From NCBI GenBank assembly GCA_964016885.1, contig OZ024743.1:357988001-358052000 (forward strand): a stretch of DNA of 64,000 bases, read 5' to 3'. The translations under genes and the position numbers were made by a program. The first letter of the stretch is position 1; every line of letters starts with the position of its first letter. Shown piece by piece: positions 1-43,822 of this stretch. The DNA is from Eledone cirrhosa (taxonomy: Eukaryota). Below the pieces are notes generated by a model. That model was not told the DNA's origin. It worked only from the letters and a program-made list of their open reading frames with translations, and ran no database searches.

Positions 1-1
1 A

Positions 2-1369
2 ACGCACATCACCCGAGGCAAAAAATATGCCACCGTAGACGTACTTTTTGCCACACCCCAGGAGGCAAAGGCCCAATCAGTAGTGACCCTAAGGAGCGAG
101 GAAATGGTGTTGGTGCCCTCCTACTGTGGGCAAAAAATTGTGAGGGTCAAACTGACCCACGTCCCCCCCGGAATGACCCCTTCTTGGCTGGCCGCGTCTG
201 TCCTCGTCGGAATCGAGGACAAAACAACTGTACTGCAAGTACAGAAAAAAGTAAGAGAAGATTGGGTCGGCTCCTCCATTGAGATGCTAATCCAAACCAA
301 CCAGGAGTGCATCGAAGCTATCCCGGATGTGATAGACTTCGATAACGGCACTCAACTGCCCATAAGTGTTGAGGGCAAACGCCCGAAATGCTTTCGCTGT
401 GGATCGAAGACTCACCTCAGGGCCTTCTGCAACGAGAAGACCCTGAGAAAGGAGAAAACCCCCCTCCTTCCGAATCCGGCTCCACGGCTACCAGCAACAG
501 GACAAGCGGCAACCAGGAACGATAGGCCCGTGGCACCCATACCCACTCCACGGAAATCAAAAACAGCAGCAGCAGTGGAAATACTAACAACAACAACAGC
601 AATACCAAATGCAGCTGCAACAGAGACTCCAGTGCAAACATCACCAACAACAACAAGTGAAAGAGTGGAGTTGGTACCCCTCCCCGACCTCACAGAATCA
701 GACATGGAGTGTGAGGTGGGAGAGAGATGGCAAAAGGTCGTAAGAAGGCACAAACGCAGAAGCAGCGCATCGTCGCCTTTGAAAAGTGAGGAAAGAAATG
801 AGAAAAGGGTAAAGTCTACTGCAAAGAGACCCACAGCAGCAACACCACCAACACCATCACCACCCACACCAGCACCACCATCACCACCGGCGACAACCCC
901 ACCGCCAACAACACCTTCAACACCACCACCACAAGCACCAACATCGCAAACACAACAACAAAACACACACACCCAGCAACAACGACAAGAAAATAGCAGA
1001 ACCACACCCCACCCCCAGAAAAACAAATGCACGGCAATAAACACACACAACAAGAAACTAATGACTTACATAATTGAACACACAGACATTTCACAACAGG
1101 ACTACATAATACCAGCACCAATCAAAACGCCAACTAACATAAGACTGCTAAAAATAGCACAGAAACAATACACAAACATTAAAACGAAATTCCCCAACGC
1201 AGTTGGTGATTTCAGGGACCTAGGAGGAACCATTAATCGAAGAGTATATTCAGACATTCTCTTAGAAGAGCCGACGACCAGCCGAAGGGACGATTCAACG
1301 GTCCCTTCACCAGACGATCAAGTGAAAAGGGATGTAAAAACCATCCCTCCTCTACCAAAAATACGGTAA
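2..1369 (+). CDS. ORF1 nucleic-acid-binding (gag-like) protein, 5'-partial
   Basis: Open from the window start in the frame of the 83..1369 ORF. Contains the CX2CX4HX4C knuckle CFRCGSKTHLRAFC. Confidence 0.9.
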   Translation, partial: THITRGKKYATVDVLFATPQEAKAQSVVTLRSEEMVLVPSYCGQKIVRVKLTHVPPGMTPSWLAASVLVGIEDKTTVLQVQKKVREDWVGSSIEMLIQTNQECIEAIPDVIDFDNGTQLPISVEGKRPKCFRCGSKTHLRAFCNEKTLRKEKTPLLPNPAPRLPATGQAATRNDRPVAPIPTPRKSKTAAAVEILTTTTAIPNAAATETPVQTSPTTTSERVELVPLPDLTESDMECEVGERWQKVVRRHKRRSSASSPLKSEERNEKRVKSTAKRPTAATPPTPSPPTPAPPSPPATTPPPTTPSTPPPQAPTSQTQQQNTHTQQQRQENSRTTPHPQKNKCTAINTHNKKLMTYIIEHTDISQQDYIIPAPIKTPTNIRLLKIAQKQYTNIKTKFPNAVGDFRDLGGTINRRVYSDILLEEPTTSRRDDSTVPSPDDQVKRDVKTIPPLPKIR

Positions 1370-1404
1370 GTGGTCTTTCCCATCTTTTCCACTCTATTTT
1401 AAAC

Positions 1405-4400
1405 ATGACCTCACTCAGAATAGGCAGCATAAATGCGCGTGGCTTGGGGTCGTCATGGAAGCAGGGTCACCTGCTCAACGACCTCAGGTCACTAAACATA
1501 GATGTAGTGGCCATCAGCGAGACCAGAATCTCCGAAGCACGGGCCTTCGCACCGATCTTCGGCGGCTACGATGTGTACGCATCTCCCAGCCGTCCTGGAT
1601 CGGGTGGAGGAGTTGCTGTGCTTTTTCGGAGAGGTTTGGATCTCGCCATACGGGCCATCTTCCTGGACCCAGAGGGTAAGCTGGTGGTGCTGGACGTGAC
1701 CAGCGGAGACGGGCAAGCTTTCAGGCTAGTGGCCGTCTATGCCCCGACAGGAGCAGGGCGGCCTGATTTCTTCCGGCGTCTGGAGACCTTTCTTGGAACG
1801 TCGCGCTCTTTAGTGTTAGTGGGCGACTGGAACGGGATCTTAGATGCACGCTGGGACTGTGTGGGATTAGCGGATAGGGGTGGAGGGTGCAAGAGCCTCA
1901 CCAACCTGCTCAGGCGTTTTGAACTGTCTGACAGGTACCGATTGGATTTCCCGAATGTGCCAATGTGGACTTGGACAAACCGCATAGGGTCATCCAGATC
2001 ATATCTAGATAGAGTATTTTGTAGGGAAATAGATAGGTCTAGCATAGGCTGTCCACAATTCAAGATAGTCAGCTACACGGACCACAAATTCGTGATCTGT
2101 GTGCTTGACTTAGATAGGCTTCATAGACGAGGACCCGGCTACTGGAAGCTAAACGCGTCCTTACCAGCGCGCAAGGCCTACAGAGACCGGATTAGCGAAC
2201 TAGTTAAGCGGGCGTTGACGGGGGCCATCGTCAACAACAAGTGGTGGTTTGCTCTGAAAAGAGCGATTAGAATAGAATCGATTAGGTTTAGTAAGGCTTT
2301 AGCAATAGAGAAAAATAGAGCAGAGGGAGAACTAGTTAGAAAATTAGACGAGGCGCTTAGCAAAGGCATTGCGACCGACGTGCTTGCGGCGAAATTGGCC
2401 CTTGACCAATTCTTCAATGCAAAGCACGAAGGCTGCGTTGTCAGAGCTAGGGTGCGTGCTCTCAGACACGAGGGGACGAAAGCCGTTCAATGGGCCCGAG
2501 TGGCGGAGGCGCGTCGTGGCAACAAAGCCACGATCCGGTCTTTGGTGGACCACGACGGGCGCATGCTACTCGATCCCGGGCAAATGTGTGAAGCTTTTCA
2601 GCGACACTTCGCTCAGCTGTTCGGGGGCAGCGGGGGGCCGGGTAGAGGGATGGACTTTAGTGTCTACCTCGACGGGCTGCCGCGGCTCTCGGCCACTGAG
2701 GCGAGGTGTTGCGAAAAGCCGATAACAGCCGCTGAAGTACGGGAGGCAATGACTGGCTGCACAAGGGGTAAATCGCCTGGTTTGGATGGTCTGCCCTATG
2801 AACTTTACGTACAGATGCCAGACTTGTTCGGAGGCCTCTTGGCGGACGTCTACTGCAACTGGCAACAGAACGGGAGAATTCCCAGTTCTGTGAGCCGAGG
2901 AGCGGTGGCACTGCTGAGAAAGGATCCGAACAAGGGGGATAACATAGACAATTTCCGGCCCATAACTCTGCTAAACACAGAGTTTAAGATTTTGGCCAAG
3001 GTGCTAGCAAAGAGGTTGGCGCTTGTCGTTGGTGGTCTGGTGGGAGAGGCGCAGACATGCGCCATTCCCGACAGATCCATCCACGACAACCTCCACCTCA
3101 TGCGATACATCGTAGAGAGGGTAGCTAGGGAACCTGGCACGGGTGGGTCCTTGATCAATTTAGATCAGTCGAAAGCTTTCGATAGGGTCGACCATCGTTA
3201 CCTAGCGGCAGTCCTGAGGGCGGCTGGCTTTGGGCCCGTCTTCAGAGGCTGGATCGCTGCCATGCACAGCGACATCTGCTCTGTGGTGAGAGTGAACGGT
3301 CACCTGTCGGAACCGTTCAACATCATGCGCTCGGTCCGCCAAGGATGTCCCCTCTCGTCCCTCTTGTACGTATTGACTCTCGAGCCATTACTGCACAAAC
3401 TGGAGACGTTGAGGGGAGTCCCGCGCGAACTAGGATGCGGAAGATCCGTGTCAGCATATGCGGACGATGTCACCGTAGTGGTGTCGAACGCCAAACACAT
3501 CGAGGCGATCGGCACTACACTAAGAGAATACGAAGCGGTGACAGGAGCAATGATCAACCAGGAAAAGTCAGTGGGCCTGCAGCTCGGCACCTGGAGAGGC
3601 AGGTCCATGCCGTCCAACAGCGTCGTCGGGCGCTGGACGGACGGACCGGTTAAATTGCTAGGGGTCTGGTTCGGTCCGGACCTCCAGACGGACAAAAACT
3701 GGGACGAGGTGACGAGCAGGGTGGCTTCTCTCACCCAGAAATGGGCGGAGAGGAAGCTATCCCTGAAAGGTCGAGCGGAGGTGGCTAACGCGTACATCGC
3801 GTCTGTCATCTGCTACCGCCTAACCGTCGTACCTTGTCCTAAGCCTCGCCTGACTGCGCTGGAGCGTTTGCTCTTTCGCTTTTTGTGGAAGGGACGTGCT
3901 CCGATGGTCAGGCGGTCCATCTGTTGTCAACACCCGCTACGTGGAGGGCTGGGCATGCCGTGGCTGATGATGCGCAGGCACGCGCTCAGGCTACGACATC
4001 TCCACCTCTTCCTCGACGGTGATCAGGTGTGGTCGCCGTTTGCTAGACGCGTTTTTCCCCAGCTCGTTTCCTTGACGGAGCTGCAGTCCTGGGTCAAGCG
4101 AAGACCGAGAGGGAGCGCCTGGAGACTGGAATGTCTTCAGGCGCTCACAGCCCTCGACCAATCGGGCAATGTGATCGGTGGAAACTCCACCTCGGCGTTC
4201 TATAGAGGATTAGTGGAGGGGAAGAGCGACGACGTACTTGGGGAAACTCTAGGCGTCGACGAAAATCAACTAGCCAATCTCTTCGGAAGAACTTTCGGGC
4301 CGGGGCCTATGGACAACTTCCAGAAATCTCTGGCCTGGCAGTGCTACCGAGGAGCCTTGCCAGTTCGGGATAAACTCTACAGGCATGGAGGTGCCGTCAG

Positions 4401-4824
4401 CCGGGCATGTCCGAGATGCGCGCAGGGCGACGAAACCGTCCTGCACGCACTCGTCCAGTGTCCGAAAATTGCTGACTTGTGGGTTTATGTCGAACACCTG
4501 CTGTCGCGTTTAGGACGGATCCAGCTATCATCTGAGTCTATCGTGAGGATTGCCCCGCCCTCCTCCTTTAGCCGGGAAGGGCAGGCAGTTTTTATCTGTC
4601 TGGTGGCCATGGCGAAAGAGATAGTATGGTGGACACGTTTGAAAGGGCTGAAGACGAGCACTTACCTCTTCGGTGATGCTCTGATTGACTTTTTCAAATT
4701 TCATTTGAAAAGGAAAATCAGAGTAGAAAAGGAAGTGCTCTCTTCCCAGCATTTTGTTGAAAGATGGGTGAGAGAAGCAAGAATGGCCCGAGTGAATGGG
4801 CCGACTCTGAGTATATATCTGTAA
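1405..4824 (+). CDS. ORF2: APE endonuclease + reverse transcriptase + C-terminal CCHC zinc finger (1139 aa)
   Basis: APE motifs INARG, ISETR, VYAP, GDWN, YLDRVF, YTDH. Linker GPGYWKLN. RT motifs KSPGLDG, NFRPITLLN, LDQSKAFDRVDH, VRQGCPLS, YADD. GGLGMP motif and the CX2CX8HX4C finger CPRCAQGDETVLHALVQC. Confidence 0.98.
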   Translation: MTSLRIGSINARGLGSSWKQGHLLNDLRSLNIDVVAISETRISEARAFAPIFGGYDVYASPSRPGSGGGVAVLFRRGLDLAIRAIFLDPEGKLVVLDVTSGDGQAFRLVAVYAPTGAGRPDFFRRLETFLGTSRSLVLVGDWNGILDARWDCVGLADRGGGCKSLTNLLRRFELSDRYRLDFPNVPMWTWTNRIGSSRSYLDRVFCREIDRSSIGCPQFKIVSYTDHKFVICVLDLDRLHRRGPGYWKLNASLPARKAYRDRISELVKRALTGAIVNNKWWFALKRAIRIESIRFSKALAIEKNRAEGELVRKLDEALSKGIATDVLAAKLALDQFFNAKHEGCVVRARVRALRHEGTKAVQWARVAEARRGNKATIRSLVDHDGRMLLDPGQMCEAFQRHFAQLFGGSGGPGRGMDFSVYLDGLPRLSATEARCCEKPITAAEVREAMTGCTRGKSPGLDGLPYELYVQMPDLFGGLLADVYCNWQQNGRIPSSVSRGAVALLRKDPNKGDNIDNFRPITLLNTEFKILAKVLAKRLALVVGGLVGEAQTCAIPDRSIHDNLHLMRYIVERVAREPGTGGSLINLDQSKAFDRVDHRYLAAVLRAAGFGPVFRGWIAAMHSDICSVVRVNGHLSEPFNIMRSVRQGCPLSSLLYVLTLEPLLHKLETLRGVPRELGCGRSVSAYADDVTVVVSNAKHIEAIGTTLREYEAVTGAMINQEKSVGLQLGTWRGRSMPSNSVVGRWTDGPVKLLGVWFGPDLQTDKNWDEVTSRVASLTQKWAERKLSLKGRAEVANAYIASVICYRLTVVPCPKPRLTALERLLFRFLWKGRAPMVRRSICCQHPLRGGLGMPWLMMRRHALRLRHLHLFLDGDQVWSPFARRVFPQLVSLTELQSWVKRRPRGSAWRLECLQALTALDQSGNVIGGNSTSAFYRGLVEGKSDDVLGETLGVDENQLANLFGRTFGPGPMDNFQKSLAWQCYRGALPVRDKLYRHGGAVSRACPRCAQGDETVLHALVQCPKIADLWVYVEHLLSRLGRIQLSSESIVRIAPPSSFSREGQAVFICLVAMAKEIVWWTRLKGLKTSTYLFGDALIDFFKFHLKRKIRVEKEVLSSQHFVERWVREARMARVNGPTLSIYL

Positions 4825-5073
4825 ACTAAAGGTGGAAAACTGGGAGAGGGCACTTGCCTTGGTGGTCAGGGTCATTGTGGCTTTTTACTGGGCTTTCTCC
4901 ACAAATGTCCCTCCGAAGTCTCCCCCCTATTGGGGAATTTTTCATTGTTATTTTCATTGTTATTTTTGTTACATCCTCTGTTTTTGTTTTTTACACGCAG
5001 AAATGCCCATTTGTACCGTCCTGCATTGTCCTGCACTGTCCTTAATGTCTACTTTATGTAAACCCTTGTGGTT

Positions 5074-5079
5074 AATAAA
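5074..5079 (+). terminator. AATAAA polyadenylation-signal-like hexamer (present in every copy)
   Basis: GGTTAATAAAGAAATC immediately before each ATT tract; a typical position for an L1/Tx1 3' end. Confidence 0.65.
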
Positions 5080-5085
5080 GAAATC

Positions 5086-5118
5086 ATTATTATTATTGTT
5101 ATTATTATTATTATTATT
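5086..5118 (+). repeat. Junction 1 tract (ATT)4 GTT (ATT)6
   Basis: Read directly; starts 6 nt after AATAAA. Confidence 0.95.
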
Positions 5119-5331
5119 GAATGCCATGGTTGACGGAGGCTCGGCTCTGTAAGGTATAGTAATTTTTAACCGTTAAAACAATTGTAAATTGTTTAAAACT
5201 TGAACCAAATTGTTGATAAAGACACCCTCCTCCTCGTGAGAGGGGTCTTTCTGTCCGTTATTTGGCCCTTCGGGGTTAAATAACCAGTTATTGGGGTTTT
5301 GTACCCAAAATTTCATTTTAAACAAAAAAAC
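5119..5331 (+). promoter_or_regulatory. 5' UTR/leader with serial stem-loops (putative internal promoter and/or structured RNA); repeated in every copy
   Basis: Hairpins at 5176-5194, 5218-5250 (GTGA loop), 5257-5284 (C-TTCG-G loop) and 5291-5308. Short uORF at 5126-5152. Confidence 0.6.
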
Positions 5332-7428
5332 ATGGCTACCAAAAAGAAATTTCATACGTCACTCCCACTCATTCCGTCTTCTTCTTCCTCAATCATCACT
5401 ACAGCAGAGAGAAGATTGTCTCTCTCCCTCCCTTCTTTAAATGTGTCTCTCTCCCTCCCTTCTCTTTCGCAAGCGACGAAAGAAAAGAAAAGTCTCGTGC
5501 AAAGCGTGCAAGGTTTCTCCACGACGACGACGACAGCGACGAAACAGGTGCGCGGGAAATACGAAAACCCAGTTCATTCGTCTGACGTCAGGAATAATAG
5601 CAGTAGCAGCCGTAATAACAACAGCAACAGTGACAATGAAAACAACAGTAGCAGCCGCAACAGCATCACCAGCAGCATAAACAACAACAGCATTAGCAGC
5701 AGCAACACCAACAACAACCACAGCAACAGCGGCGGAGGCAGTAGTCGTAGTACCTGCAGCAACAACAAAAGTACCAGCAGCTCTGACGACAACAACAACA
5801 GCAGAGAAAAACCAATCTCATTTGCAGGTATTGCGAAAAACCTGGAAACAATCCTCATAACAAATGAGGAATTAGAGGAAGCGAAGAAGATGGTGACAAA
5901 GAACGGACACCGAGCAATCTGCAAGGCAGCGAAAAATTTTTTCGAAACCCAAGAGCACTGTACGGTCACGTACCGTACAGTAAGTACAAAATCCCGTAGG
6001 GTGGAAAGAGCCACAGAGGCCCAAATACAAAAAGCCTTGGGGTCTGTGTGGCAGAGGAAAACGCACATCACCCGAGGCAAAAAATACGCCACCGTAGACG
6101 TACTTTTTGCCACACCCCAGGAGGCAAAGGCCCAATCAGTAGTGACCCTAAGGAGCGAGGAAATGGTGTTGGTGCCCTCCTACTGCGGGCAAAAAATTGT
6201 GAGGGTCAAACTGACCCACGTCCCCCCCGGAATGACCCCTTCTTGGCTGGCCGCGTCTGTCCTCGTCGGAATCGAGGACAAAACAACTGTACTGCAAGTA
6301 CAGAAAAAAGTAAGAGAAGATTGGGTCGGCTCCTCCATTGAGATGCTAATCCAAACCAACCAGGAGTGCATCGAAGCTATCCCGGATGTGATAGACTTCG
6401 ATAACGGCACTCAACTGCCCATAAGTGTTGAGGGCAAACGCCCGAAATGCTTTCGCTGTGGATCGAAGACTCACCTCAGGGCCTTCTGCAACGAGAAGAC
6501 CCTGAGAAAGGAGAAAACCCCCCTCCTCCCGAATCCGGTTCCACGGCTACCAGCAACAGGACAAGCGGCAACCAGGAACGATAGGTCCGTGGCACCCATA
6601 CCCACTCCACGGAAATCAAAGACAGCAGCAGCAGTGGAAATATTAACAACAACAACAGCAATACCAAATGCAGCTGCAACAGAGACTCCAGTGCAAACAT
6701 CACCAACAACAACAAGTGAAAGAGTGGAGCTGGTACCCCTCCCCGACCTTACAGAATCAGACATGGAGTGTGAGGTGGGAGAGGGATGGCAAAAGGTCTC
6801 AAGAAGGCACAAACGCAGAAGCAGCGCATCGTCGCCTTTGAAAAGGGAGGAAAGAAATGAGAAAAGGGTAAAGTCTACTGCAAAGAGACCCACAGCAGCA
6901 ACACCACCAACACCATCACCACCCACACCAGCACCACCATCACCACCGGCGACAACCCCACCGCCAACAACACCTTCAACACCACCACCACAAGCACCAA
7001 CATCGCAAACACAACAACAAAACACACACACCCAGCAACAACGACAAGAAAATAGCAGAACCACACCCCACCCCCAGAAAAACAAATGCACGGCAATAAA
7101 CACACACAACAAGAAACTAATGACTTACATAATTGAACACACAGACATTTCACAACAGGACTACATAATACCAGCACCAATCAAAACGCCAACTAACATA
7201 AGACTGCTAAAAATAGCACAGAAACAATACACAAACATTAAAACGAAATTCCCCAACGCAGTTGGTGATTTCAGGGACCTAGGAGGAACCATTAATCGAA
7301 GAGTATATTCAGACATTCTCTTAGAAGAGCCGACGACCAGCCGAAGGGACGATTCAACGGTCCCTTCACCAGACGATCAAGTGAAAAGGGATGTAAAAAC
7401 CATCCCTCCTCTACCAAAAATACGGTAA
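5332..7428 (+). CDS. ORF1 (698 aa from AAACATGG; the ORF track starts it at upstream TTG 5299)
   Basis: First in-frame ATG in good context. Ser/Asn-rich N-terminus, RRM-like core, CCHC knuckle at 6448-6489, basic NLS-like KVSRRHKRR, Pro/Thr-rich tract. Confidence 0.9.
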   Translation: MATKKKFHTSLPLIPSSSSSIITTAERRLSLSLPSLNVSLSLPSLSQATKEKKSLVQSVQGFSTTTTTATKQVRGKYENPVHSSDVRNNSSSSRNNNSNSDNENNSSSRNSITSSINNNSISSSNTNNNHSNSGGGSSRSTCSNNKSTSSSDDNNNSREKPISFAGIAKNLETILITNEELEEAKKMVTKNGHRAICKAAKNFFETQEHCTVTYRTVSTKSRRVERATEAQIQKALGSVWQRKTHITRGKKYATVDVLFATPQEAKAQSVVTLRSEEMVLVPSYCGQKIVRVKLTHVPPGMTPSWLAASVLVGIEDKTTVLQVQKKVREDWVGSSIEMLIQTNQECIEAIPDVIDFDNGTQLPISVEGKRPKCFRCGSKTHLRAFCNEKTLRKEKTPLLPNPVPRLPATGQAATRNDRSVAPIPTPRKSKTAAAVEILTTTTAIPNAAATETPVQTSPTTTSERVELVPLPDLTESDMECEVGEGWQKVSRRHKRRSSASSPLKREERNEKRVKSTAKRPTAATPPTPSPPTPAPPSPPATTPPPTTPSTPPPQAPTSQTQQQNTHTQQQRQENSRTTPHPQKNKCTAINTHNKKLMTYIIEHTDISQQDYIIPAPIKTPTNIRLLKIAQKQYTNIKTKFPNAVGDFRDLGGTINRRVYSDILLEEPTTSRRDDSTVPSPDDQVKRDVKTIPPLPKIR

Positions 7429-7463
7429 GTGGTCTTTCCCATCTTTTCCACTCTATTTTAAAC

Positions 7464-10400
7464 ATGACCTCACTCAGAATAGGCAGCATAAATGCGCGTG
7501 GCTTGGGGTCGTCATGGAAGCAGGGTCACCTGCTCAACGACCTCAGGTCACTAAACATAGATGTAGTGGCCATCAGCGAGACCAGAATCTCCGAAGCACG
7601 GGCCTTCGCACCGATCTTCGGCGGCTACGATGTGTACGCATCTCCCAGCCGTCCTGGATCGGGTGGAGGAGTTGCTGTGCTTTTTCGGAGAGGTTTGGAT
7701 CTCGCCATACGGGCCATCTTCCTGGACCCAGAGGGTAAGCTGGTGGTGCTGGACGTGACCAGCGGAGACGGGCAAGCTTTCAGGCTAGTGGCCGTCTATG
7801 CCCCGACAGGAGCAGGGCGGCCTGATTTCTTCCGGCGTCTGGAGACCTTTCTTGGAACGTCGCGCTCTTTAGTGTTAGTGGGCGACTGGAACGGGATCTT
7901 AGATGCACGCTGGGACTGTGTGGGATTAGCGGATAGGGGTGGAGGGTGCAAGAGCCTCACCAACCTGCTCAGGCGTTTTGAACTGTCTGACAGGTACCGA
8001 TTGGATTTCCCGAATGTGCCAATGTGGACTTGGACAAACCGCATAGGGTCATCCAGATCATATCTAGATAGAGTATTTTGTAGGGAAATAGATAGGTCTA
8101 GCATAGGCTGTCCACAATTCAAGATAGTCAGCTACACGGACCACAAATTCGTGATCTGTGTGCTTGACTTAGATAGGCTTCATAGACGAGGACCCGGCTA
8201 CTGGAAGCTAAACGCGTCCTTACCAGCGCGCAAGGCCTACAGAGACCGGATTAGCGAACTAGTTAAGCGGGCGTTGACGGGGGCCATCGTCAACAACAAG
8301 TGGTGGTTTGCTCTGAAAAGAGCGATTAGAATAGAATCGATTAGGTTTAGTAAGGCTTTAGCAATAGAGAAAAATAGAGCAGAGGGAGAACTAGTTAGAA
8401 AATTAGACGAGGCGCTTAGCAAAGGCATTGCGACCGACGTGCTTGCGGCGAAATTGGCCCTTGACCAATTCTTCAATGCAAAGCACGAAGGCTGCGTTGT
8501 CAGAGCTAGGGTGCGTGCTCTCAGACACGAGGGGACGAAAGCCGTTCAATGGGCCCGAGTGGCGGAGGCGCGTCGTGGCAACAAAGCCACGATCCGGTCT
8601 TTGGTGGACCACGACGGGCGCATGCTACTCGATCCCGGGCAAATGTGTGAAGCTTTTCAGCGACACTTCGCTCAGCTGTTCGGGGGCAGCGGGGGGCCGG
8701 GTAGAGGGATGGACTTTAGTGTCTACCTCGACGGACTGCCGCGGCTCTCGGCCACTGAGGCGAAGTGTTGCGAAAAGCCGATAACAGCCGCTGAAGTAAG
8801 GGAGGCAATGACTGGCTGCACAAGGGGTAAATCGCCTGGTTTGGATGGTCTGCCCTATGAACTTTACGTACAGATGCCAGACTTGTTCGGAGGCCTCTTG
8901 GCGGACGTCTACTGCAACTGGCAACAGAACGGGAGAATTCCCAGTTCTGTGAGCCGAGGAGCGGTGGCACTGCTGAGAAAGGATCCGAACAAGGGGGATA
9001 ACATAGACAATTTCCGGCCCATAACTCTGCTAAACACAGAGTTTAAGATTTTGGCCAAGGTGCTAGCAAAGAGGTTGGCGCTTGTCGTTGGTGGTCTGGT
9101 GGGAGAGGCGCAGACATGCGCCATTCCCGACAGATCCATCCACGACAACCTCCACCTCATGCGATACATCGTAGAGAGGGTAGCTAGGGAACCTGGCACG
9201 GGTGGGTCCTTGATCAATTTAGATCAGTCGAAAGCTTTCGATAGGGTCGACCATCGTTACCTAGCGGCAGTCCTGAGGGCGGCTGGCTTTGGGCCCGTCT
9301 TCAGAGGCTGGATCGCTGCCATGCACAGCGACATCTGCTCTGTGGTGAGAGTGAACGGTCACCTGTCGGAACCGTTCAACATCATGCGCTCGGTCCGCCA
9401 AGGATGTCCCCTCTCGTCCCTCTTGTACGTATTGACTCTCGAGCCATTACTGCACAAACTGGAGACGTTGAGGGGAGTCCCGCGCGAACTAGGATGCGGA
9501 AGATCCGTGTCAGCATATGCGGACGATGTCACCGTAGTGGTGTCGAACGCCAAACACATCGAGGCGATCGGCACTACACTAAGAGAATACGAAGCGGTGA
9601 CAGGAGCAATGATCAACCAGGAAAAGTCAGTGGGCCTGCAGCTCGGCACCTGGAGAGGCAGGTCCATGCCGTCCAACAGCGTCGTCGGGCGCTGGACGGA
9701 CGGACCGGTTAAATTGCTAGGGGTCTGGTTCGGTCCGGACCTCCAGACGGACAAAAACTGGGACGAGGTGACGAGCAGGGTGGCTTCTCTCACCCAGAAA
9801 TGGGCGGAGAGGAAGCTATCCCTGAAAGGTCGAGCGGAGGTGGCTAACGCGTACATCGCGTCTGTCATCTGCTACCGCCTAACCGTCGTACCTTGTCCTA
9901 AGCCTCGCCTGACTGCGCTGGAGCGTTTGCTCTTTCGCTTTTTGTGGAAGGGACGTGCTCCGATGGTCAGGCGGTCCATCTGTTGTCAACACCCGCTACG
10001 TGGAGGGCTGGGCATGCCGTGGCTGATGATGCGCAGGCACGCGCTCAGGCTACGACATCTCCACCTCTTCCTCGACGGTGATCAGGTGTGGTCGCCGTTT
10101 GCTAGACGCGTTTTTCCCCAGCTCGTTTCCTTGACGGAGCTGCAGTCCTGGGTCAAGCGAAGACCGAGAGGGAGCGCCTGGAGACTGGAATGTCTTCAGG
10201 CGCTCACAGCCCTCGACCAATCGGGCAATGTGATCGGTGGAAACTCCACCTCGGCGTTCTATAGAGGATTAGTGGAGGGGAAGAGCGACGACGTACTTGG
10301 GGAAACTCTAGGCGTCGACGAAAATCAACTAGCCAATCTCTTCGGAAGAACCTTCGGGCCAGGGCCTATGGACAACTTCCAGAAATCTCTGGCCTGGCAG

Positions 10401-10883
10401 TGCTACCGAGGAGCCTTGCCAGTTCGGGATAAACTCTACAGGCATGGAGGTGCCGTCAGCCGGGCATGTCCGAGATGCGCGCAGGGCGACGAAACCGTCC
10501 TGCACGCACTCGTCCAGTGTCCGAAAATTGCTGACTTGTGGGTTTATGTCGAACACCTGCTGTCGCGTTTAGGACGGATCCAGCTATCATCTGAGTCTAT
10601 CGTGAGGATTGCCCCGCCCTCCTCCTTTAGCCGGGAAGGGCAGGCAGTTTTTATCTGTCTGGTGGCCATGGCGAAAGAGATAGTATGGTGGACACGTTTG
10701 AAAGGGCTGAAGACGAGCACTTACCTCTTCGGTGATGCTCTGATTGACTTTTTCAAATTTCATTTGAAAAGGAAAATCAGAGTAGAGAAGGAAGTGCTCT
10801 CTTCCCAGCATTTTGTTGAAAGATGGGTGAGAGAAGCAAGAATGGCCCGAGTGAATGGGCCGACTCTGAGTATATATCTGTAA
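7464..10883 (+). CDS. ORF2 APE-RT-zinc finger (1139 aa)
   Basis: Motifs as in copy 1; zinc finger at 10467-10520. Confidence 0.98.
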   Translation: MTSLRIGSINARGLGSSWKQGHLLNDLRSLNIDVVAISETRISEARAFAPIFGGYDVYASPSRPGSGGGVAVLFRRGLDLAIRAIFLDPEGKLVVLDVTSGDGQAFRLVAVYAPTGAGRPDFFRRLETFLGTSRSLVLVGDWNGILDARWDCVGLADRGGGCKSLTNLLRRFELSDRYRLDFPNVPMWTWTNRIGSSRSYLDRVFCREIDRSSIGCPQFKIVSYTDHKFVICVLDLDRLHRRGPGYWKLNASLPARKAYRDRISELVKRALTGAIVNNKWWFALKRAIRIESIRFSKALAIEKNRAEGELVRKLDEALSKGIATDVLAAKLALDQFFNAKHEGCVVRARVRALRHEGTKAVQWARVAEARRGNKATIRSLVDHDGRMLLDPGQMCEAFQRHFAQLFGGSGGPGRGMDFSVYLDGLPRLSATEAKCCEKPITAAEVREAMTGCTRGKSPGLDGLPYELYVQMPDLFGGLLADVYCNWQQNGRIPSSVSRGAVALLRKDPNKGDNIDNFRPITLLNTEFKILAKVLAKRLALVVGGLVGEAQTCAIPDRSIHDNLHLMRYIVERVAREPGTGGSLINLDQSKAFDRVDHRYLAAVLRAAGFGPVFRGWIAAMHSDICSVVRVNGHLSEPFNIMRSVRQGCPLSSLLYVLTLEPLLHKLETLRGVPRELGCGRSVSAYADDVTVVVSNAKHIEAIGTTLREYEAVTGAMINQEKSVGLQLGTWRGRSMPSNSVVGRWTDGPVKLLGVWFGPDLQTDKNWDEVTSRVASLTQKWAERKLSLKGRAEVANAYIASVICYRLTVVPCPKPRLTALERLLFRFLWKGRAPMVRRSICCQHPLRGGLGMPWLMMRRHALRLRHLHLFLDGDQVWSPFARRVFPQLVSLTELQSWVKRRPRGSAWRLECLQALTALDQSGNVIGGNSTSAFYRGLVEGKSDDVLGETLGVDENQLANLFGRTFGPGPMDNFQKSLAWQCYRGALPVRDKLYRHGGAVSRACPRCAQGDETVLHALVQCPKIADLWVYVEHLLSRLGRIQLSSESIVRIAPPSSFSREGQAVFICLVAMAKEIVWWTRLKGLKTSTYLFGDALIDFFKFHLKRKIRVEKEVLSSQHFVERWVREARMARVNGPTLSIYL

Positions 10884-11146
10884 ACTAAAGGTGGAAAACT
10901 GGGAGAGGGCACTTGCCTTGGTGGTCAGGGTCATTGTGGCTTTTTACTGGGCTTTCTCCACAAATGTCCCTCCGAAGTCTCCCCCCTATTGGGGAATTTT
11001 TCATTGTTATTTTCATTGTTATTTTTGTTACATCCTCTATTTTTGTTTTTTTTACACGCAGAAATGCCCATTTGTACCGTCCTGCATTGTCCTGCACTGT
11101 CCTTAATGTCTACTTTATGTAAACCCTTGTGGTTAATAAAGAAATC

Positions 11147-11170
11147 ATTATTATTATTATTATTATTATT
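11147..11170 (+). repeat. Junction 2 tract (ATT)8
   Basis: Read directly. Confidence 0.95.
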
Positions 11171-11383
11171 GAATGCCATGGTTGACGGAGGCTCGGCTCT
11201 GTAAGGTATAGTAATTTTTAACCGTTAAAACAATTGTAAATTGTTTAAAACTTGAACCAAATTGTTGATAAAGACACCCTCCTCCTCGTGAGAGGGGTCT
11301 TTCTGTCCGTTATTTGGCCCTTCGGGGTTAAATAGCCAGTTATTGGGGTTTTGTACCCAAAATTTCATTTTAAACAAAAAAAC

Positions 11384-13483
11384 ATGGCTACCAAAAAAAA
11401 AAAATTTCACACGTCACTCCCACTCATTCCGTCTTCTTCTTCCTCAATCATCACTACAGGAGAGAGAAGATTGTCTCTCTCCCTCCCTTCTTTAAATGTG
11501 TCTCTCTCCCTACCTTCTCTTTCGCAAGCGACGAAAGAAAAGAAAAGTCTCGTGCAAAGCGTGCAAGGTTTCTCCACGACGACGACGACAGCGACGAAAC
11601 AGGTGTGCGGGAAATACGAAAACCCAGTTCATTCGTCTGACGTCAGGAATAATAGCAGTAGCAGCCGTAATAACAACAGCAACAGTGACAATGAAAACAA
11701 CAGTAGCAGCCGCAACAGCATCACCAGCAGCATAAACAACAACAGCATTAGCAGCAGCAACACCAACAACAACCACAGCAACAGCGGCGGAGGCAGTAGT
11801 CGTAGTACCTGCAGCAACAACAAAAGTACCAGCAGCTCTGACGACAACAACAACAGCAGAGAAAAACCAATCTCATTTGCAGGTATTGCGAAAAACCTGG
11901 AAACAATCCTCATAACAAATGAGGAATTAGAGGAAGCGAAGAAGATGGTGACAAAGAACGGACACCGAGCAATCTGCAAGGCAGCGAAAAATTTTTTCGA
12001 AACCCAAGAGCACTGTACGGTCACGTACCGTACAGTAAGTACAAAATCCCGTAGGGTGGAAAGAGCCACAGAGGCCCAAATACAAAAAGCCTTGGGGTCT
12101 GTGTGGCAGAGGAAAACGCACATCACCCGAGGCAAAAAATACGCCACCGTAGACGTACTTTTTGCCACACCCCAGGAGGCAAAGGCCCAATCAGTAGTGA
12201 CCCTAAGGAGCGAGGAAATGGTGTTGGTGCCCTCCTACTGCGGGCAAAAAATTGTGAGGGTCAAACTGACCCACGTCCCCCCCGGAATGACCCCTTCTTG
12301 GCTGGCCGCGTCTGTCCTCGTCGGAATCGAGGACAAAACAACTGTACTGCAAGTACAGAAAAAAGTAAGAGAAGATTGGGTCGGCTCCTCCATTGAGATG
12401 CTAATCCAAACCAACCAGGAGTGCATCGAAGCTATCCCGGATGTGATAGACTTCGATAACGGCACTCAACTGCCCATAAGTGTTGAGGGCAAACGCCCGA
12501 AATGCTTTCGCTGTGGATCGAAGACTCACCTCAGGGCCTTCTGCAACGAGAAGACCCTGAGAAAGGAGAAAACCCCCCTCCTCCCGAATCCGGTTCCACG
12601 GCTACCAGCAACAGGACAAGCGGCAACCAGGAACGATAGGTCCGTGGCACCCATACCCACTCCACGGAAATCAAAGACAGCAGCAGCAGTGGAAATATTA
12701 ACAACAACAACAGCAATACCAAATGCAGCTGCAACAGAGACTCCAGTGCAAACATCACCAACAACAACAAGTGAAAGAGTGGAGCTGGTACCCCTCCCCG
12801 ACCTTACAGAATCAGACATGGAGTGTGAGGTGGGAGAGGGATGGCAAAAGGTCTCAAGAAGGCACAAACGCAGAAGCAGCGCATCGTCGCCTTTGAAAAG
12901 GGAGGAAAGAAATGAGAAAAGGGTAAAGTCTACTGCAAAGAGACCCACAGCAGCAACACCACCAACACCATCACCACCCACACCAGCACCACCATCACCA
13001 CCGGCGACAACCCCACCGCCAACAACACCTTCAACACCACCACCACAAGCACCAACATCGCAAACACAACAACAAAACACACACACCCAGCAACAACGAC
13101 AAGAAAATAGCAGAACCACACCCCACCCCCAGAAAAACAAATGCACGGCAATAAACACACACAACAAGAAACTAATGACTTACATAATTGAACACACAGA
13201 CATTTCACAACAGGACTACATAATACCAGCACCAATCAAAACGCCAACTAACATAAGACTGCTAAAAATAGCACAGAAACAATACACAAACATTAAAACG
13301 AAATTCCCCAACGCAGTTGGTGATTTCAGGGACCTAGGAGGAACCATTAATCGAAGAGTATATTCAGACATTCTCTTAGAAGAGCCGACGACCAGCCGAA
13401 GGGACGATTCAACGGTCCCTTCACCAGACGATCAAGTGAAAAGGGATGTAAAAACCATCCCTCCTCTACCAAAAATACGGTAA
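11384..13483 (+). CDS. ORF1 (699 aa)
   Basis: Near-identical to copy 2 ORF1. Confidence 0.9.
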   Translation: MATKKKKFHTSLPLIPSSSSSIITTGERRLSLSLPSLNVSLSLPSLSQATKEKKSLVQSVQGFSTTTTTATKQVCGKYENPVHSSDVRNNSSSSRNNNSNSDNENNSSSRNSITSSINNNSISSSNTNNNHSNSGGGSSRSTCSNNKSTSSSDDNNNSREKPISFAGIAKNLETILITNEELEEAKKMVTKNGHRAICKAAKNFFETQEHCTVTYRTVSTKSRRVERATEAQIQKALGSVWQRKTHITRGKKYATVDVLFATPQEAKAQSVVTLRSEEMVLVPSYCGQKIVRVKLTHVPPGMTPSWLAASVLVGIEDKTTVLQVQKKVREDWVGSSIEMLIQTNQECIEAIPDVIDFDNGTQLPISVEGKRPKCFRCGSKTHLRAFCNEKTLRKEKTPLLPNPVPRLPATGQAATRNDRSVAPIPTPRKSKTAAAVEILTTTTAIPNAAATETPVQTSPTTTSERVELVPLPDLTESDMECEVGEGWQKVSRRHKRRSSASSPLKREERNEKRVKSTAKRPTAATPPTPSPPTPAPPSPPATTPPPTTPSTPPPQAPTSQTQQQNTHTQQQRQENSRTTPHPQKNKCTAINTHNKKLMTYIIEHTDISQQDYIIPAPIKTPTNIRLLKIAQKQYTNIKTKFPNAVGDFRDLGGTINRRVYSDILLEEPTTSRRDDSTVPSPDDQVKRDVKTIPPLPKIR

Positions 13484-13518
13484 GTGGTCTTTCCCATCTT
13501 TTCCACTCTATTTTAAAC

Positions 13519-16500
13519 ATGACCTCACTCAGAATAGGCAGCATAAATGCGCGTGGCTTGGGGTCGTCATGGAAGCAGGGTCACCTGCTCAACGACCTCA
13601 GGTCACTAAACATAGATGTAGTGGCCATCAGCGAGACCAGAATCTCCGAAGCACGGGCCTTCGCACCGATCTTCGGCGGCTACGATGTGTACGCATCTCC
13701 CAGCCGTCCTGGATCGGGTGGAGGAGTTGCTGTGCTTTTTCGGAGAGGTTTGGATCTCGCCATACGGGCCATCTTCCTGGACCCAGAGGGTAAGCTGGTG
13801 GTGCTGGACGTGACCAGCGGAGACGGGCAAGCTTTCAGGCTAGTGGCCGTCTATGCCCCGACAGGAGCAGGGCGGCCTGATTTCTTCCGGCGTCTGGAGA
13901 CCTTTCTTGGAACGTCGCGCTCTTTAGTGTTAGTGGGCGACTGGAACGGGATCTTAGATGCACGCTGGGACTGTGTGGGATTAGCGGATAGGGGTGGAGG
14001 GTGCAAGAGCCTCACCAACCTGCTCAGGCGTTTTGAACTGTCTGACAGGTACCGATTGGATTTCCCGAATGTGCCAATGTGGACTTGGACAAACCGCATA
14101 GGGTCATCCAGATCATATCTAGATAGAGTATTTTGTAGGGAAATAGATAGGTCTAGCATAGGCTGTCCACAATTCAAGATAGTCAGCTACACGGACCACA
14201 AATTCGTGATCTGTGTGCTTGACTTAGATAGGCTTCATAGACGAGGACCCGGCTACTGGAAGCTAAACGCGTCCTTACCAGCGCGCAAGGCCTACAGAGA
14301 CCGGATTAGCGAACTAGTTAAGCGGGCGTTGACGGGGGCCATCGTCAACAACAAGTGGTGGTTTGCTCTGAAAAGAGCGATTAGAATAGAATCGATTAGG
14401 TTTAGTAAGGCTTTAGCAATAGAGAAAAATAGAGCAGAGGGAGAACTAGTTAGAAAATTAGACGAGGCGCTTAGCAAAGGCATTGCGACCGACGTGCTTG
14501 CGGCGAAATTGGCCCTTGACCAATTCTTCAATGCAAAGCACGAAGGCTGCGTTGTCAGAGCTAGGGTGCGTGCTCTCAGACACGAGGGGACGAAAGCCGT
14601 TCAATGGGCCCGAGTGGCGGAGGCGCGTCGTGGCAACAAAGCCACGATCCGGTCTTTGGTGGACCACGACGGGCGCATGCTACTCGATCCCGGGCAAATG
14701 TGTGAAGCTTTTCAGCGACACTTCGCTCAGCTGTTCGGGGGCAGCGGGGGGCCGGGTAGAGGGATGGACTTTAGTGTCTACCTCGACGGGCTGCCGCGGC
14801 TCTCGGCCACTGAGGCGAGGTGTTGCGAAAAGCCGATAACAGCCGCTGAAGTACGGGAGGCAATGACTGGCTGCACAAGGGGTAAATCGCCTGGTTTGGA
14901 TGGTCTGCCCTATGAACTTTACGTACAGATGCCAGACTTGTTCGGAGGCCTCTTGGCGGACGTCTACTGCAACTGGCAACAGAACGGGAGAATTCCCAGT
15001 TCTGTGAGCCGAGGAGCGGTGGCACTGCTGAGAAAGGATCCGAACAAGGGGGATAACATAGACAATTTCCGGCCCATAACTCTGCTAAACACAGAGTTTA
15101 AGATTTTGGCCAAGGTGCTAGCAAAGAGGTTGGCGCTTGTCGTTGGTGGTCTGGTGGGAGAGGCGCAGACATGCGCCATTCCCGACAGATCCATCCACGA
15201 CAACCTCCACCTCATGCGATACATCGTAGAGAGGGTAGCTAGGGAACCTGGCACGGGTGGGTCCTTGATCAATTTAGATCAGTCGAAAGCTTTCGATAGG
15301 GTCGACCATCGTTACCTAGCGGCAGTCCTGAGGGCGGCTGGCTTTGGGCCCGTCTTCAGAGGCTGGATCGCTGCCATGCACAGCGACATCTGCTCTGTGG
15401 TGAGAGTGAACGGTCACCTGTCGGAACCGTTCAACATCATGCGCTCGGTCCGCCAAGGATGTCCCCTCTCGTCCCTCTTGTACGTATTGACTCTCGAGCC
15501 ATTACTGCACAAACTGGAGACGTTGAGGGGAGTCCCGCGCGAACTAGGATGCGGAAGATCCGTGTCAGCATATGCGGACGATGTCACCGTAGTGGTGTCG
15601 AACGCCAAACACATCGAGGCGATCGGCACTACACTAAGAGAATACGAAGCGGTGACAGGAGCAATGATCAACCAGGAAAAGTCAGTGGGCCTGCAGCTCG
15701 GCACCTGGAGAGGCAGGTCCATGCCGTCCAACAGCGTCGTCGGGCGCTGGACGGACGGACCGGTTAAATTGCTAGGGGTCTGGTTCGGTCCGGACCTCCA
15801 GACGGACAAAAACTGGGACGAGGTGACGAGCAGGGTGGCTTCTCTCACCCAGAAATGGGCGGAGAGGAAGCTATCCCTGAAAGGTCGAGCGGAGGTGGCT
15901 AACGCGTACATCGCGTCTGTCATCTGCTACCGCCTAACCGTCGTACCTTGTCCTAAGCCTCGCCTGACTGCGCTGGAGCGTTTGCTCTTTCGCTTTTTGT
16001 GGAAGGGACGTGCTCCGATGGTCAGGCGGTCCATCTGTTGTCAACACCCGCTACGTGGAGGGCTGGGCATGCCGTGGCTGATGATGCGCAGGCACGCGCT
16101 CAGGCTACGACATCTCCACCTCTTCCTCGACGGTGATCAGGTGTGGTCGCCGTTTGCTAGACGCGTTTTTCCCCAGCTCGTTTCCTTGACGGAGCTGCAG
16201 TCCTGGGTCAAGCAAAGACCGAGAGGGAGCGCCTGGAGACTGGAATGTCTTCAGGCGCTCACAGCCCTCGACCAATCGGGCAATGTGATCGGTGGAAACT
16301 CCACCTCGGCGTTCTATAGAGGATTAGTGGAGGGGAAGAGCGACGACGTACTTGGGGAAACTCTAGGCGTCGACGAAAATCAACTAGCCAATCTCTTCGG
16401 AAGAACTTTCGGGCCAGGGCCTATGGACAACTTCCAGAAATCTCTGGCCTGGCAGTGCTACCGAGGAGCCTTGCCAGTTCGGGATAAACTCTACAGGCAT

Positions 16501-16938
16501 GGAGGTGCCGTCAGCCGGGCATGTCCGAGATGCGCGCAGGGCGACGAAACCGTCCTGCACGCACTCGTCCAGTGTCCGAAAATTGCTGACTTGTGGGTTT
16601 ATGTCGAACACCTGCTGTCGCGTTTAGGACGGATCCAGCTATCATCTGAGTCTATCGTGAGGATTGCCCCGCCCTCCTCCTTTAGCCGGGAAGGGCAGGC
16701 AGTTTTTATCTGTCTGGTGGCCATGGCGAAAGAGATAGTATGGTGGACACGTTTGAAAGGGCTGAAGACGAGCACTTACCTCTTCGGTGATGCTCTGATT
16801 GACTTTTTCAAATTTCATTTGAAAAGGAAAATCAGAGTAGAAAAGGAAGTGCTCTCTTCCCAGCATTTTGTTGAAAGATGGGTGAGAGAAGCAAGAATGG
16901 CCCGAGTGAATGGGCCGACTCTGAGTATATATCTGTAA
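13519..16938 (+). CDS. ORF2 APE-RT-zinc finger (1139 aa)
   Basis: Motifs as in copy 1. Confidence 0.98.
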   Translation: MTSLRIGSINARGLGSSWKQGHLLNDLRSLNIDVVAISETRISEARAFAPIFGGYDVYASPSRPGSGGGVAVLFRRGLDLAIRAIFLDPEGKLVVLDVTSGDGQAFRLVAVYAPTGAGRPDFFRRLETFLGTSRSLVLVGDWNGILDARWDCVGLADRGGGCKSLTNLLRRFELSDRYRLDFPNVPMWTWTNRIGSSRSYLDRVFCREIDRSSIGCPQFKIVSYTDHKFVICVLDLDRLHRRGPGYWKLNASLPARKAYRDRISELVKRALTGAIVNNKWWFALKRAIRIESIRFSKALAIEKNRAEGELVRKLDEALSKGIATDVLAAKLALDQFFNAKHEGCVVRARVRALRHEGTKAVQWARVAEARRGNKATIRSLVDHDGRMLLDPGQMCEAFQRHFAQLFGGSGGPGRGMDFSVYLDGLPRLSATEARCCEKPITAAEVREAMTGCTRGKSPGLDGLPYELYVQMPDLFGGLLADVYCNWQQNGRIPSSVSRGAVALLRKDPNKGDNIDNFRPITLLNTEFKILAKVLAKRLALVVGGLVGEAQTCAIPDRSIHDNLHLMRYIVERVAREPGTGGSLINLDQSKAFDRVDHRYLAAVLRAAGFGPVFRGWIAAMHSDICSVVRVNGHLSEPFNIMRSVRQGCPLSSLLYVLTLEPLLHKLETLRGVPRELGCGRSVSAYADDVTVVVSNAKHIEAIGTTLREYEAVTGAMINQEKSVGLQLGTWRGRSMPSNSVVGRWTDGPVKLLGVWFGPDLQTDKNWDEVTSRVASLTQKWAERKLSLKGRAEVANAYIASVICYRLTVVPCPKPRLTALERLLFRFLWKGRAPMVRRSICCQHPLRGGLGMPWLMMRRHALRLRHLHLFLDGDQVWSPFARRVFPQLVSLTELQSWVKQRPRGSAWRLECLQALTALDQSGNVIGGNSTSAFYRGLVEGKSDDVLGETLGVDENQLANLFGRTFGPGPMDNFQKSLAWQCYRGALPVRDKLYRHGGAVSRACPRCAQGDETVLHALVQCPKIADLWVYVEHLLSRLGRIQLSSESIVRIAPPSSFSREGQAVFICLVAMAKEIVWWTRLKGLKTSTYLFGDALIDFFKFHLKRKIRVEKEVLSSQHFVERWVREARMARVNGPTLSIYL

Positions 16939-17201
16939 ACTAAAGGTGGAAAACTGGGAGAGGGCACTTGCCTTGGTGGTCAGGGTCATTGTGGCTTTTT
17001 ACTGGGCTTTCTCCACAAATGTCCCTCCGAAGTCTCCCCCCTATTGGGGAATTTTTCATTGTTATTTTCATTGTTATTTTAGTTACATCCTCTGTTTTTG
17101 TTTTTTTTACACGCAGAAATGCCCATTTGTACCGTCCTGCATTGTCCTGCACTGTCCTTAATGTCTACTTTATGTAAACCCTTGTGGTTAATAAAGAAAT
17201 C

Positions 17202-17240
17202 ATTATTATTATTATTATTGTTATTATTATTATTATTATT
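17202..17240 (+). repeat. Junction 3 tract (ATT)6 GTT (ATT)6
   Basis: Read directly. Confidence 0.95.
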
Positions 17241-17453
17241 GAATGCCATGGTTGACGGAGGCTCGGCTCTGTAAGGTATAGTAATTTTTAACCGTTAAAA
17301 CAATTGTAAATTGTTTAAAACTTGAACCAAATTGTTGATAAAGACACCCTCCTCCTCGTGAGAGGGGTCTTTCTGTCCGTTATTTGGCCCTTCGGGGTTA
17401 AATAGCCAGTTATTGGGGTTTTGTACCCAAAATTTCATTTTAAACAAAAAAAC

Positions 17454-19553: not shown

Positions 19554-19588
19554 GTGGTCTTTCCCATCTTTTCCACTCTATTTTAAAC

Positions 19589-23008: not shown

Positions 23009-23270
23009 ACTAAAGGTGGAAAACTGGGAGAGGGCACTTGCCTTGGTGGTCAGGGTCATTGTGGCTTTTTACTGGGCTTTCTCCACAAATGTCCCTCCGA
23101 AGTCTCCCCCCTATTGGGGAATTTTTCATTGTTATTTTCATTGTTATTTTTGTTACATCCTCTGTTTTTGTTTTTTTACACGCAGAAATGCCCATTTGTA
23201 CCGTCCTGCATTGTCCTGCACTGTCCTTAATGTCTACTTTATGTAAACCCTTGTGGTTAATAAAGAAATC

Positions 23271-23309
23271 ATTATTATTATTATTATTGTTATTATTATT
23301 ATTATTATT
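23271..23309 (+). repeat. Junction 4 tract (ATT)6 GTT (ATT)6
   Basis: Read directly. Confidence 0.95.
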
Positions 23310-23522
23310 GAATGCCATGGTTGACGGAGGCTCGGCTCTGTAAGGTATAGTAATTTTTAACCGTTAAAACAATTGTAAATTGTTTAAAACTTGAACCAAA
23401 TTGTTGATAAAGACACCCTCCTCCTCGTGAGAGGGGTCTTTCTGTCCGTTATTTGGCCCTTCGGGGTTAAATAGCCAGTTATTGGGGTTTTGTACCCAAA
23501 ATTTCATTTTAAACAAAAAAAC

Positions 23523-25616: not shown

Positions 25617-25651
25617 GTGGTCTTTCCCATCTTTTCCACTCTATTTTAAAC

Positions 25652-29071: not shown

Positions 29072-29333
29072 ACTAAAGGTGGAAAACTGGGAGAGGGCAC
29101 TTGCCTTGGTGGTCAGGGTCATTGTGGCTTTTTACTGGGCTTTCTCCACAAATGTCCCTCCGAAGTCTCCCCCCTATTGGGGAATTTTTCATTGTTATTT
29201 TCATTGTTATTTTTGTTACATCCTCTGTTTTTGTTTTTTTACACGCAGAAATGCCCATTTGTACCGTCCTGCATTGTCCTGCACTGTCCTTAATGTCTAC
29301 TTTATGTAAACCCTTGTGGTTAATAAAGAAATC

Positions 29334-29357
29334 ATTATTATTATTATTATTATTATT
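29334..29357 (+). repeat. Junction 5 tract (ATT)8
   Basis: Read directly. Confidence 0.95.
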
Positions 29358-29570
29358 GAATGCCATGGTTGACGGAGGCTCGGCTCTGTAAGGTATAGTA
29401 ATTTTTAACCGTTAAAACAATTGTAAATTGTTTAAAACTTGAACCAAATTGTTGATAAAGACACCCTCCTCCTCGTGAGAGGGGTCTTTCTGTCCGTTAT
29501 TTGGCCCTTCGGGGTTAAATAACCAGTTATTGGGGTTTTGTACCCAAAATTTCATTTTAAACAAAAAAAC

Positions 29571-31667: not shown

Positions 31668-31702
31668 GTGGTCTTTCCCATCTTTTCCACTCTATTTTAA
31701 AC

Positions 31703-35385: not shown

Positions 35386-35403
35386 ATTATTATTATTATT
35401 ATT
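35386..35403 (+). repeat. Junction 6 tract (ATT)6
   Basis: Read directly. Confidence 0.95.
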
Positions 35404-37716: not shown

Positions 37717-37751
37717 GTGGTCTTTCCCATCTTTTCCACTCTATTTTAAAC

Positions 37752-43787: not shown

Positions 43788-43822
43788 GTGGTCTTTCCCA
43801 TCTTTTCCACTCTATTTTAAAC

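Follow-up and report, generated by a model that had tools for sequence, protein, structure and literature searches.

An array of R1 elements in Drosophila melanogaster has been traced to a double insertion that was subsequently expanded by unequal exchange (McGurk and Barbash 2018, PMC5932611). Tandems of SINEU-3, as presented by Kojima, sandwich a TSD and are put down to sequential insertion, and Keno-type Tx1 elements adjoin snRNA genes (Kojima 2015, PMC4494074). Pairing of the RNA 3' end with the target has been reported to aid priming by SART1Bm and R1Bm, and for SART1Bm a target-like RNA 3' end is given as raising accurate priming from 36% to 76% (PMC7265360). Among cephalopods, recently active L1-Tx1 copies have been counted in Octopus vulgaris in a study whose treatment of them describes no arrays (PMC13282606). 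A search of the literature for Tx1 elements that target (ATT)n, or for Tx1 arrays in cephalopods, returned nothing, and Repbase or supplementary files such as the O. vulgaris repeat library may hold the family.

The stretch of DNA analysed here (the window, 64,000 nt) is in its entirety a head-to-tail array of one L1/Tx1-type LINE (1..64000, + strand) with mosaic haplotypes, comprising nine whole units and two partial ones, and both ends of the array lie outside it. Whole units are 6024-6031 bp long (~6.03 kb), and the mean divergence among them is 0.23%. In unit 1, which like the rest of the array reads on the + strand, a 5' UTR (5119..5331) leads into ORF1 (5332..7428; 698 aa counted from the first ATG), whose translation has one CCHC knuckle and low-complexity arms; ORF2 follows (7464..10883; 1139 aa), and a 3' UTR (10884..11146) closes with AATAAA and a 6-nt linker. 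Both frames are open in 8/9 whole units. Unit 8 (49718-53304), in which a one-base deletion and frameshift splits ORF2, carries the most private substitutions among whole units, and unit 0 has 12 private substitutions within the visible part of its ORF1 (945-1731) but resembles the other units downstream; it is a mosaic whose ORF1 part is more divergent. No 5'-truncated unit occurs in the window, where the 5' end of each of the 10 downstream units is intact. A telomeric array was considered and rejected (0 telomeric repeats among 82 tandem-repeat rows), as was a higher-order period of nine units, since 29 sites distinguish units 0 and 9. Of the 24 public runs listed, 20 contain the stretch in whole or in part, and 11 of these include at least half the words.

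ORF2 encodes a predicted APE endonuclease, a reverse transcriptase and a C-terminal CCHC finger, with Pfam matches to Exo_endo_phos (3e-14), RVT_1 (1e-28) and zf-RVT (8e-8) and no Pfam match to RNase H; its catalytic motifs are intact. Among solved structures in the PDB the best relative is L1 ORF2p (E 3e-52 over about 850 aa), and R2 matches at E 1e-21 in the RT only. Judged from its predicted sequence, ORF2 is nearer L1 than R2, and the order APE, RT and C-terminal CCHC is the architecture of the L1 group/Tx1 clade type. A CCHC zinc knuckle in ORF1 is a feature of the Tx1 clade; the Atlas look-alikes of ORF1, zf-CCHC and RBD_ZCCHC3 at 0.90-0.93, are a lead only. In an RT tree of 59 rows, from which loci with short RT matches were omitted and which has no named Tx1 reference among its rows, the window groups with a sister lineage (G001) as one clade with support 100/99, and relatives flanked by U2 or U1 (27-31% identical) fall on other branches whose links are unstarred. 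The label Tx1-type would accordingly describe an architecture and snRNA-flanked neighbours in a tree without named Tx1 sequences. The named relatives are an Argonauta hians protein (58%) and a 61-aa piece of an Octopus sinensis gene model (64%), which makes an octopod the probable host. Distant relatives adjoin U2 or U1 snRNA genes, with 5 Rfam matches in 4 of the 20 loci scanned, from a total of 123 (L117 3036-3199 and 9961-10137; L028 9202-9356; L008 5815-5977; L005 4675-4885). At L117, whose contig is labelled as part of a bacterial MAG, element-like sequence continues without a break into a 5'-truncated U1, and an intact U1 lies upstream.

Exactly ten ATT runs were located by regular expression over the whole window, all on the + strand, and their order and make-up agree exactly with the ten junction strings of the original prediction. 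Junction 1 (5086..5118) reads (ATT)4 GTT (ATT)6, with GTT at 5098-5100, and is likely a target-site copy. It is preceded by an AATAAA (5074..5079) that is likely the 3' end of the upstream element, as judged from the sister lineage, where host target comes directly after AATAAA, and by a 6-nt linker (5080..5085) that is either the element end or the first bases of the founder target. The form 6+GTT+6 is found at junctions 3 (17202..17240), 4 (23271..23309), 8 (47505..47543) and 10 (59623..59661), and 9+GTT+6 at junction 7 (41433..41480); (ATT)8 stands at junctions 2 (11147..11170), 5 (29334..29357) and 9 (53568..53591), and the shortest run, (ATT)6 or 18 bp, at junction 6 (35386..35403). GTT is present at 6/10 junctions and missing at 4/10. 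The gap from AATAAA to the run is 6 nt at 10/10 junctions, the linker is invariant at all of them, and the 40-nt flanks on either side of the run are likewise identical at 10/10. An Rfam search for an snRNA, a spliced-leader or another RNA gene at the junction gave nothing better than E 0.24. The exact 3'-end pattern had 0 matches in metagenome and viral contigs, and 0/77 candidates in viral contigs proved to be ORF2 relatives.

It had been proposed that these junctions carry a code, in which a variable upstream run is followed by a fixed GTT-(ATT)6 that serves as a 5' tag of the downstream copy. The left halves of the GTT junctions have 4, 6, 6, 9, 6 and 6 repeats and the right halves all have 6, such that 2/6 left and 0/6 right halves differ from six, an asymmetry within chance (Fisher one-sided 0.23, two-sided 0.45; paired label swap 0.25). 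Moreover, only three alleles underlie the six GTT junctions, which are non-independent. In a toy model of symmetric slippage and junction copying, run over 12 settings, left-only variation arose in 7-25% of comparable samples (those with three GTT alleles) and one-sided variation, on either side, in 17-50%. GTT showed no linkage to the SNPs of either neighbouring unit (51 column-by-side tests, lowest P 0.13), and with the nearest variable sites all four allele combinations occur on both sides; for the downstream unit this null comes from n = 10, and recombination would erase such linkage.

The 5' UTR (5119-5335) folds better than 200/200 shuffles (z -3.0); one of its stems is capped by UUCG, and it belongs to no Rfam family. 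In neither the 5' UTR nor the junction was there an Rfam ribozyme among 10 weak matches (best E 0.24, unrelated). HDV-like or hammerhead patterns, as roughly drawn by us, had 0 matches near the junction, and a loose match to a hammerhead core within low-complexity sequence of ORF1 was disregarded. No ribozyme was thus recovered that could set a 5' end of the tag type. On these ten junctions the junction code is not supported, and neither is the fixed 5' tag, since the asymmetry is within chance and GTT shows no link to the units on either side. Most likely GTT is no tag but a one-off A>G interruption that descends from a single ancestral junction. Interruptions of microsatellites are described as originating mainly by base substitution and as stabilising the tract (PMC4102424).

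The units recombine, which shuffles both the units and the junctions between them. In a four-gamete test 54/120 informative site pairs were incompatible (Rm at least 6), so that exchange among units after array formation, a feature of R1-type arrays, is seen here as well. Between whole units there are 5-20 substitutions, arranged in mosaic patterns that the units share. Although different junctions precede them, units 1 and 10 match perfectly across 4.3 kb, and the units just upstream of them, with 29 differences, diverge from each other more than any other pair. Among the units of the window, neighbours are no more similar than distant units (P 0.37), which argues against simple unequal exchange, since that would predict the contrary. 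No two junctions share an identical combination of upstream haplotype, run and downstream haplotype, and this, taken with the P of 0.37, indicates that junctions are reshuffled faster than plain block duplication explains. One 5' haplotype (alignment columns 223-436) is common to eight consecutive units, 2-9, while units 1 and 10 have, at the sites compared, the alleles that dominate in public runs X2 and X5, a pattern suggestive of one variant having expanded locally.

A search of genome contigs returned 43 loci, 38 of which come from one assembly labelled a bacterial MAG (G001). The contigs of this assembly hold 86 ORF2 matches, about 57 of them near full length, at 41-44% identity and in head-to-tail arrays. 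We infer that these LINE contigs are animal DNA; within a bacterial MAG they are evidently eukaryotic contamination. The LINE tandem arrays on contigs C3-C19 (L124-L158) add up to ~600 kb, and their flanks bear microsatellites. A survey of 35 stretches (615 kb) yielded 67 3' ends, 0/67 with poly(A) and 0/67 with an ATT run; instead, each closes with AATAAA, after which comes a spacer of 16-19 bp that is particular to one of nine subfamilies. The original prediction had noted the lack of poly(A) at the window's junctions. The observation holds (0/10 junctions with poly(A)), and since the lack is lineage-wide it does not point to an ATT-specific mechanism.

Sister elements terminate at AATAAA, and the spacer that follows is host target duplicated over 16-19 bp. 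This was demonstrated at C18, where an empty copy of a host repeat, with no AATAAA upstream, is identical to the occupied site over 19 nt from the insertion point and to the junction over 16 nt. The 346-bp host segment is itself duplicated there, with empty and occupied sites adjoining (L158, 13825-12900). The spacer is kept at 4/4 array ends before non-element DNA (15/17, 16/17, 17/18 and 13/17), where the next 17 nt give 11, 2, 4 and 6 matches; at C5 the match extends beyond 17 nt (control 11/17), so spacer length varies. It is also kept before 3/3 5'-truncated copies, and at array starts it is found in full at 3/6, in part at one (C19) and weakly at two (C3 and C4), so that target duplication occurs at both ends of the element in this lineage. 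At C19 the two flanks cannot be read as a single duplication, for which mis-assembly or exchange may be responsible. On another contig (C9; L125, 26746-20466) two adjoining 3.1-kb 5'-truncated copies have a common breakpoint and are 99.2% identical, which indicates that these arrays also duplicate internally.

By analogy with the sister lineage, at an ORF2 identity of 43% that limits how far the analogy reaches, the window is probably (roughly 55%) a LINE array in which each ATT run is a copy of an (ATT)n landing site, duplicated upon insertion beside an older copy. The run is read as a target copy because the sister spacer after AATAAA is duplicated host target, and (ATT)6, at 18 bp, fits the sister duplication length of 16-19 bp. 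We infer that priming takes place on a read-through RNA, that new copies enter the regenerated site and that GTT goes back to one A>G change. The element would end at about AATAAA, with a transcript that reads a few repeats into the run and primes there without poly(A). With nicks offset by about 16-19 bp, some six ATT would be duplicated, giving the 18-bp minimum; the best-matching free site would adjoin an existing copy, and copies would stack. Recombination between units, which is shown above, would then reshuffle units and junctions, and GTT would be a single ancestral A>G interruption that was afterwards copied, resized or lost. An 18-bp duplication alone cannot spread GTT to 6/10 junctions, so that DNA-level copying, a longer duplication or carry-over in the RNA would be needed. 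Of what was originally proposed, the regeneration of a target copy between units, by which each insertion supplies a site for the next, is probably right by analogy with the sister lineage, and the fixed GTT-(ATT)6 tag is without support.

Two further observations bear on ATT as a target. Kojima's criterion for a target-specific family is that more than 20% of independent flanks share a sequence; here an ATT run is found at 10/10 junctions, all within one array and non-independent. Contigs of run X5 (organism B) extend 29 nt past the last unique base of the element on both sides and end there. Simulated contig ends reached 25-30 nt with ATT flanks and 0 or 300 nt with unique flanks; the window's own mix of junctions gave 12 and 18 nt, not 29, so that the junctions of organism B differ from those of the window. 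The contig ends of X5, given as lengths and not as letters, are suggestive of ATT on both sides of the element.

How a target comes to be chosen in this clade may be approached through the nine sister subfamilies. Eight of them have ORF2 proteins 91-98% identical and endonucleases 90-96% identical (the ninth, C13, stands at 49%), and the spacers of these eight match one another at chance level (4-9 of 18; random 6.5). Within-subfamily spacer variation exceeds that of the 700 nt upstream in 6 of the 7 subfamilies measured (0.03-0.31 versus 0.0004-0.016), C13 being invariant and two single-junction subfamilies lying outside the comparison, and part of the excess was traced to array ends and to an insertion in C8. 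It is possible, and we put it forward tentatively, that target choice in the clade is inherited through the RNA and not the enzyme, the transcript carrying the last duplicated target and pairing with similar sites. Such a memory is suggested by the unrelated and variable spacers of subfamilies whose endonucleases are nearly alike, by two sister 5' junctions that seem to hold an older spacer (C17 and C18, below) and by the 3' pairing known to aid priming in SART1Bm and R1Bm. The target at the 3' end of the transcript, and sometimes at the 5' end, would in that event 'remember' the landing site of the founder; near-identical proteins would found separate self-stacking arrays at unrelated targets, and the family of the window would have captured (ATT)n and thereby every ATT microsatellite in the genome. 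Against such a memory, 39/250 EN columns vary among the eight sister subfamilies, with clusters of change at alignment columns 68-71 and 162-164, and the flanks of C19 do not form a single duplication. A 9x9 swap test for pairing of the spacer with its own 5' end was not significant at any of three cut points (P 0.10, 0.14 and 0.31), and one of its three control windows gave 0.03. In subfamilies A, C and H, spacer and first bases of the next unit form hairpins, down to -14 kcal/mol. The sister subfamilies are a natural experiment on the shares of protein and RNA pairing in site choice by APE-type LINEs, and a positive outcome for RNA guidance, if true, would matter for programmable retrotransposon insertion.

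The alternative that survives best, though we consider it doubtful, is a 5' carry like that of R2, in which the RNA starts upstream in the junction and a cDNA ending in GTT-(ATT)6 anneals to the target and rebuilds the block. At 6/6 GTT junctions the identical 5' start is preceded by exactly six ATT, and the intact 5' ends of all 10 downstream units accord with it, as does the precedent of R2 RNAs, which are described as bearing 9-36 nt of upstream target and as propagating junction variants (PMC3774820). Two sister 5' junctions appear to carry an older spacer: the start of C17 matches the C14 spacer at 17/18 and its own array end at 16/18, and in the first C18 unit, 61 nt into the site, lie 13 nt of the C10 spacer. 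The 5' end of that C18 unit has a 26-nt direct repeat around these 13 nt. The sister evidence amounts to these two cases, however, and in the window the asymmetry on which the idea depends has a P of 0.23-0.25, the SNPs of the downstream unit are unlinked, 4/10 junctions have no GTT, and the searches by Rfam and by rough pattern described above recovered no ribozyme, HDV-like or hammerhead, at the junction.

It is also unlikely that the endonuclease itself recognises (ATT/AAT)n, as is assumed for Kibi and Koshi, with no part played by RNA pairing. Tx1 families are given as targeting (TC)n, (TTC)n, (TTCC)n and (TTTC)n, a choice ascribed mainly to the endonuclease (PMC4494074), and the hairpin loop of the window element is unlike that of the sister families; the 39/250 variable EN columns likewise leave room for protein-coded switching. 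An L1 hairpin loop changes specificity when grafted, and nicking by L1-EN is reported as less specific than integration (PMC1950540). In 7/8 sister subfamilies, however, the loop at the L1 hairpin-loop position is identical, and yet their spacers are alike only at chance. The ATT-specific endonuclease of the original prediction is hence doubtful as a sole cause, since sister enzymes 90-96% identical sit at unrelated targets.

Less probable again is an ATT run that is an element-encoded 3' tail, with no preference for an ATT target and with an array grown at the DNA level from a dimer or circle. Element-encoded 3' tails are known in I-factor, CR1 and L2. The constant 6-nt distance from AATAAA to the run would suit such a tail, as would the recombination among units and the absence of any 5'-truncated unit in spite of a contig depth in run X2 about 7-fold higher at the 3' than at the 5' end, a ratio that is weak evidence, with the kind of run unrecorded and summed depth being no copy number. 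Against a tail, the sequence after AATAAA in the sister lineage is host target, and in X5 the 29-nt limit applies to the 5' side as well as the 3' side. The 4.3-kb identity of units 1 and 10 next to the most divergent upstream neighbours further indicates that copying is unit-sized. An assembly artefact, with one unit over-expanded and junction lengths reduced to consensus noise, is very improbable, for although repeat lengths are error-prone and the junctions have no read coverage, units are separated by 5-20 substitutions in shared mosaic patterns, 8/9 whole units keep both frames and similar arrays occur in an independent assembly (G001).

The reading of the window as a target-copy array may be set beside the systems named at the outset. 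The R1 array, as described, is likewise composed of head-to-tail full-length APE-type LINEs with a copy of the target site between units; it differs in belonging to the R1 clade and in a 33-nt rDNA duplication that is identical throughout, whereas the window has an L1/Tx1-type element and an ATT run of variable length (PMC5932611). The run lies between all 10 unit pairs of the window, and its identity as target is drawn from the sister lineage. SINEU-3 offers a similar case of sequential insertion, with tandems that hold the target between them, and Kibi at (TC)n, Koshi at (TTC)n and the crocodilian families at (TTCC)n/(TTTC)n share both the class of protein architecture and a simple-repeat target; ATT is not among the targets given in that account, and the tandems it presents are not 60-kb arrays (PMC4494074). 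The run in the window is (ATT)n, and not of the (TC)n or (TTC)n type of Kibi and Koshi.

R2 provides the precedent for RNA that bears target at its 5' end, for uniform 5' junctions and for the propagation of junction variants, and it differs in an RLE-type enzyme, a 28S target and an HDV-like ribozyme, no ribozyme having been found for the window element (Eickbush et al. 2013, PMC3774820). Dong, of the R4 clade, is flanked by TAA repeats and so by the same class of microsatellite, but it is RLE-type, has a ribozyme and carries TAA on the sense strand, in the opposite orientation to the ATT here (PMC3774820). In SART1Bm and R1Bm the endonuclease is described as fixing the site and poly(A) is used (PMC7265360), whereas the window has no poly(A) and annealing there would be the presumed step. 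On this reading the array in the window follows the known pattern of R1 and SINEU, repeat insertion and then unequal exchange, and to the known target-repeating Tx1-type LINEs it adds a satellite-like array associated with (ATT)n.
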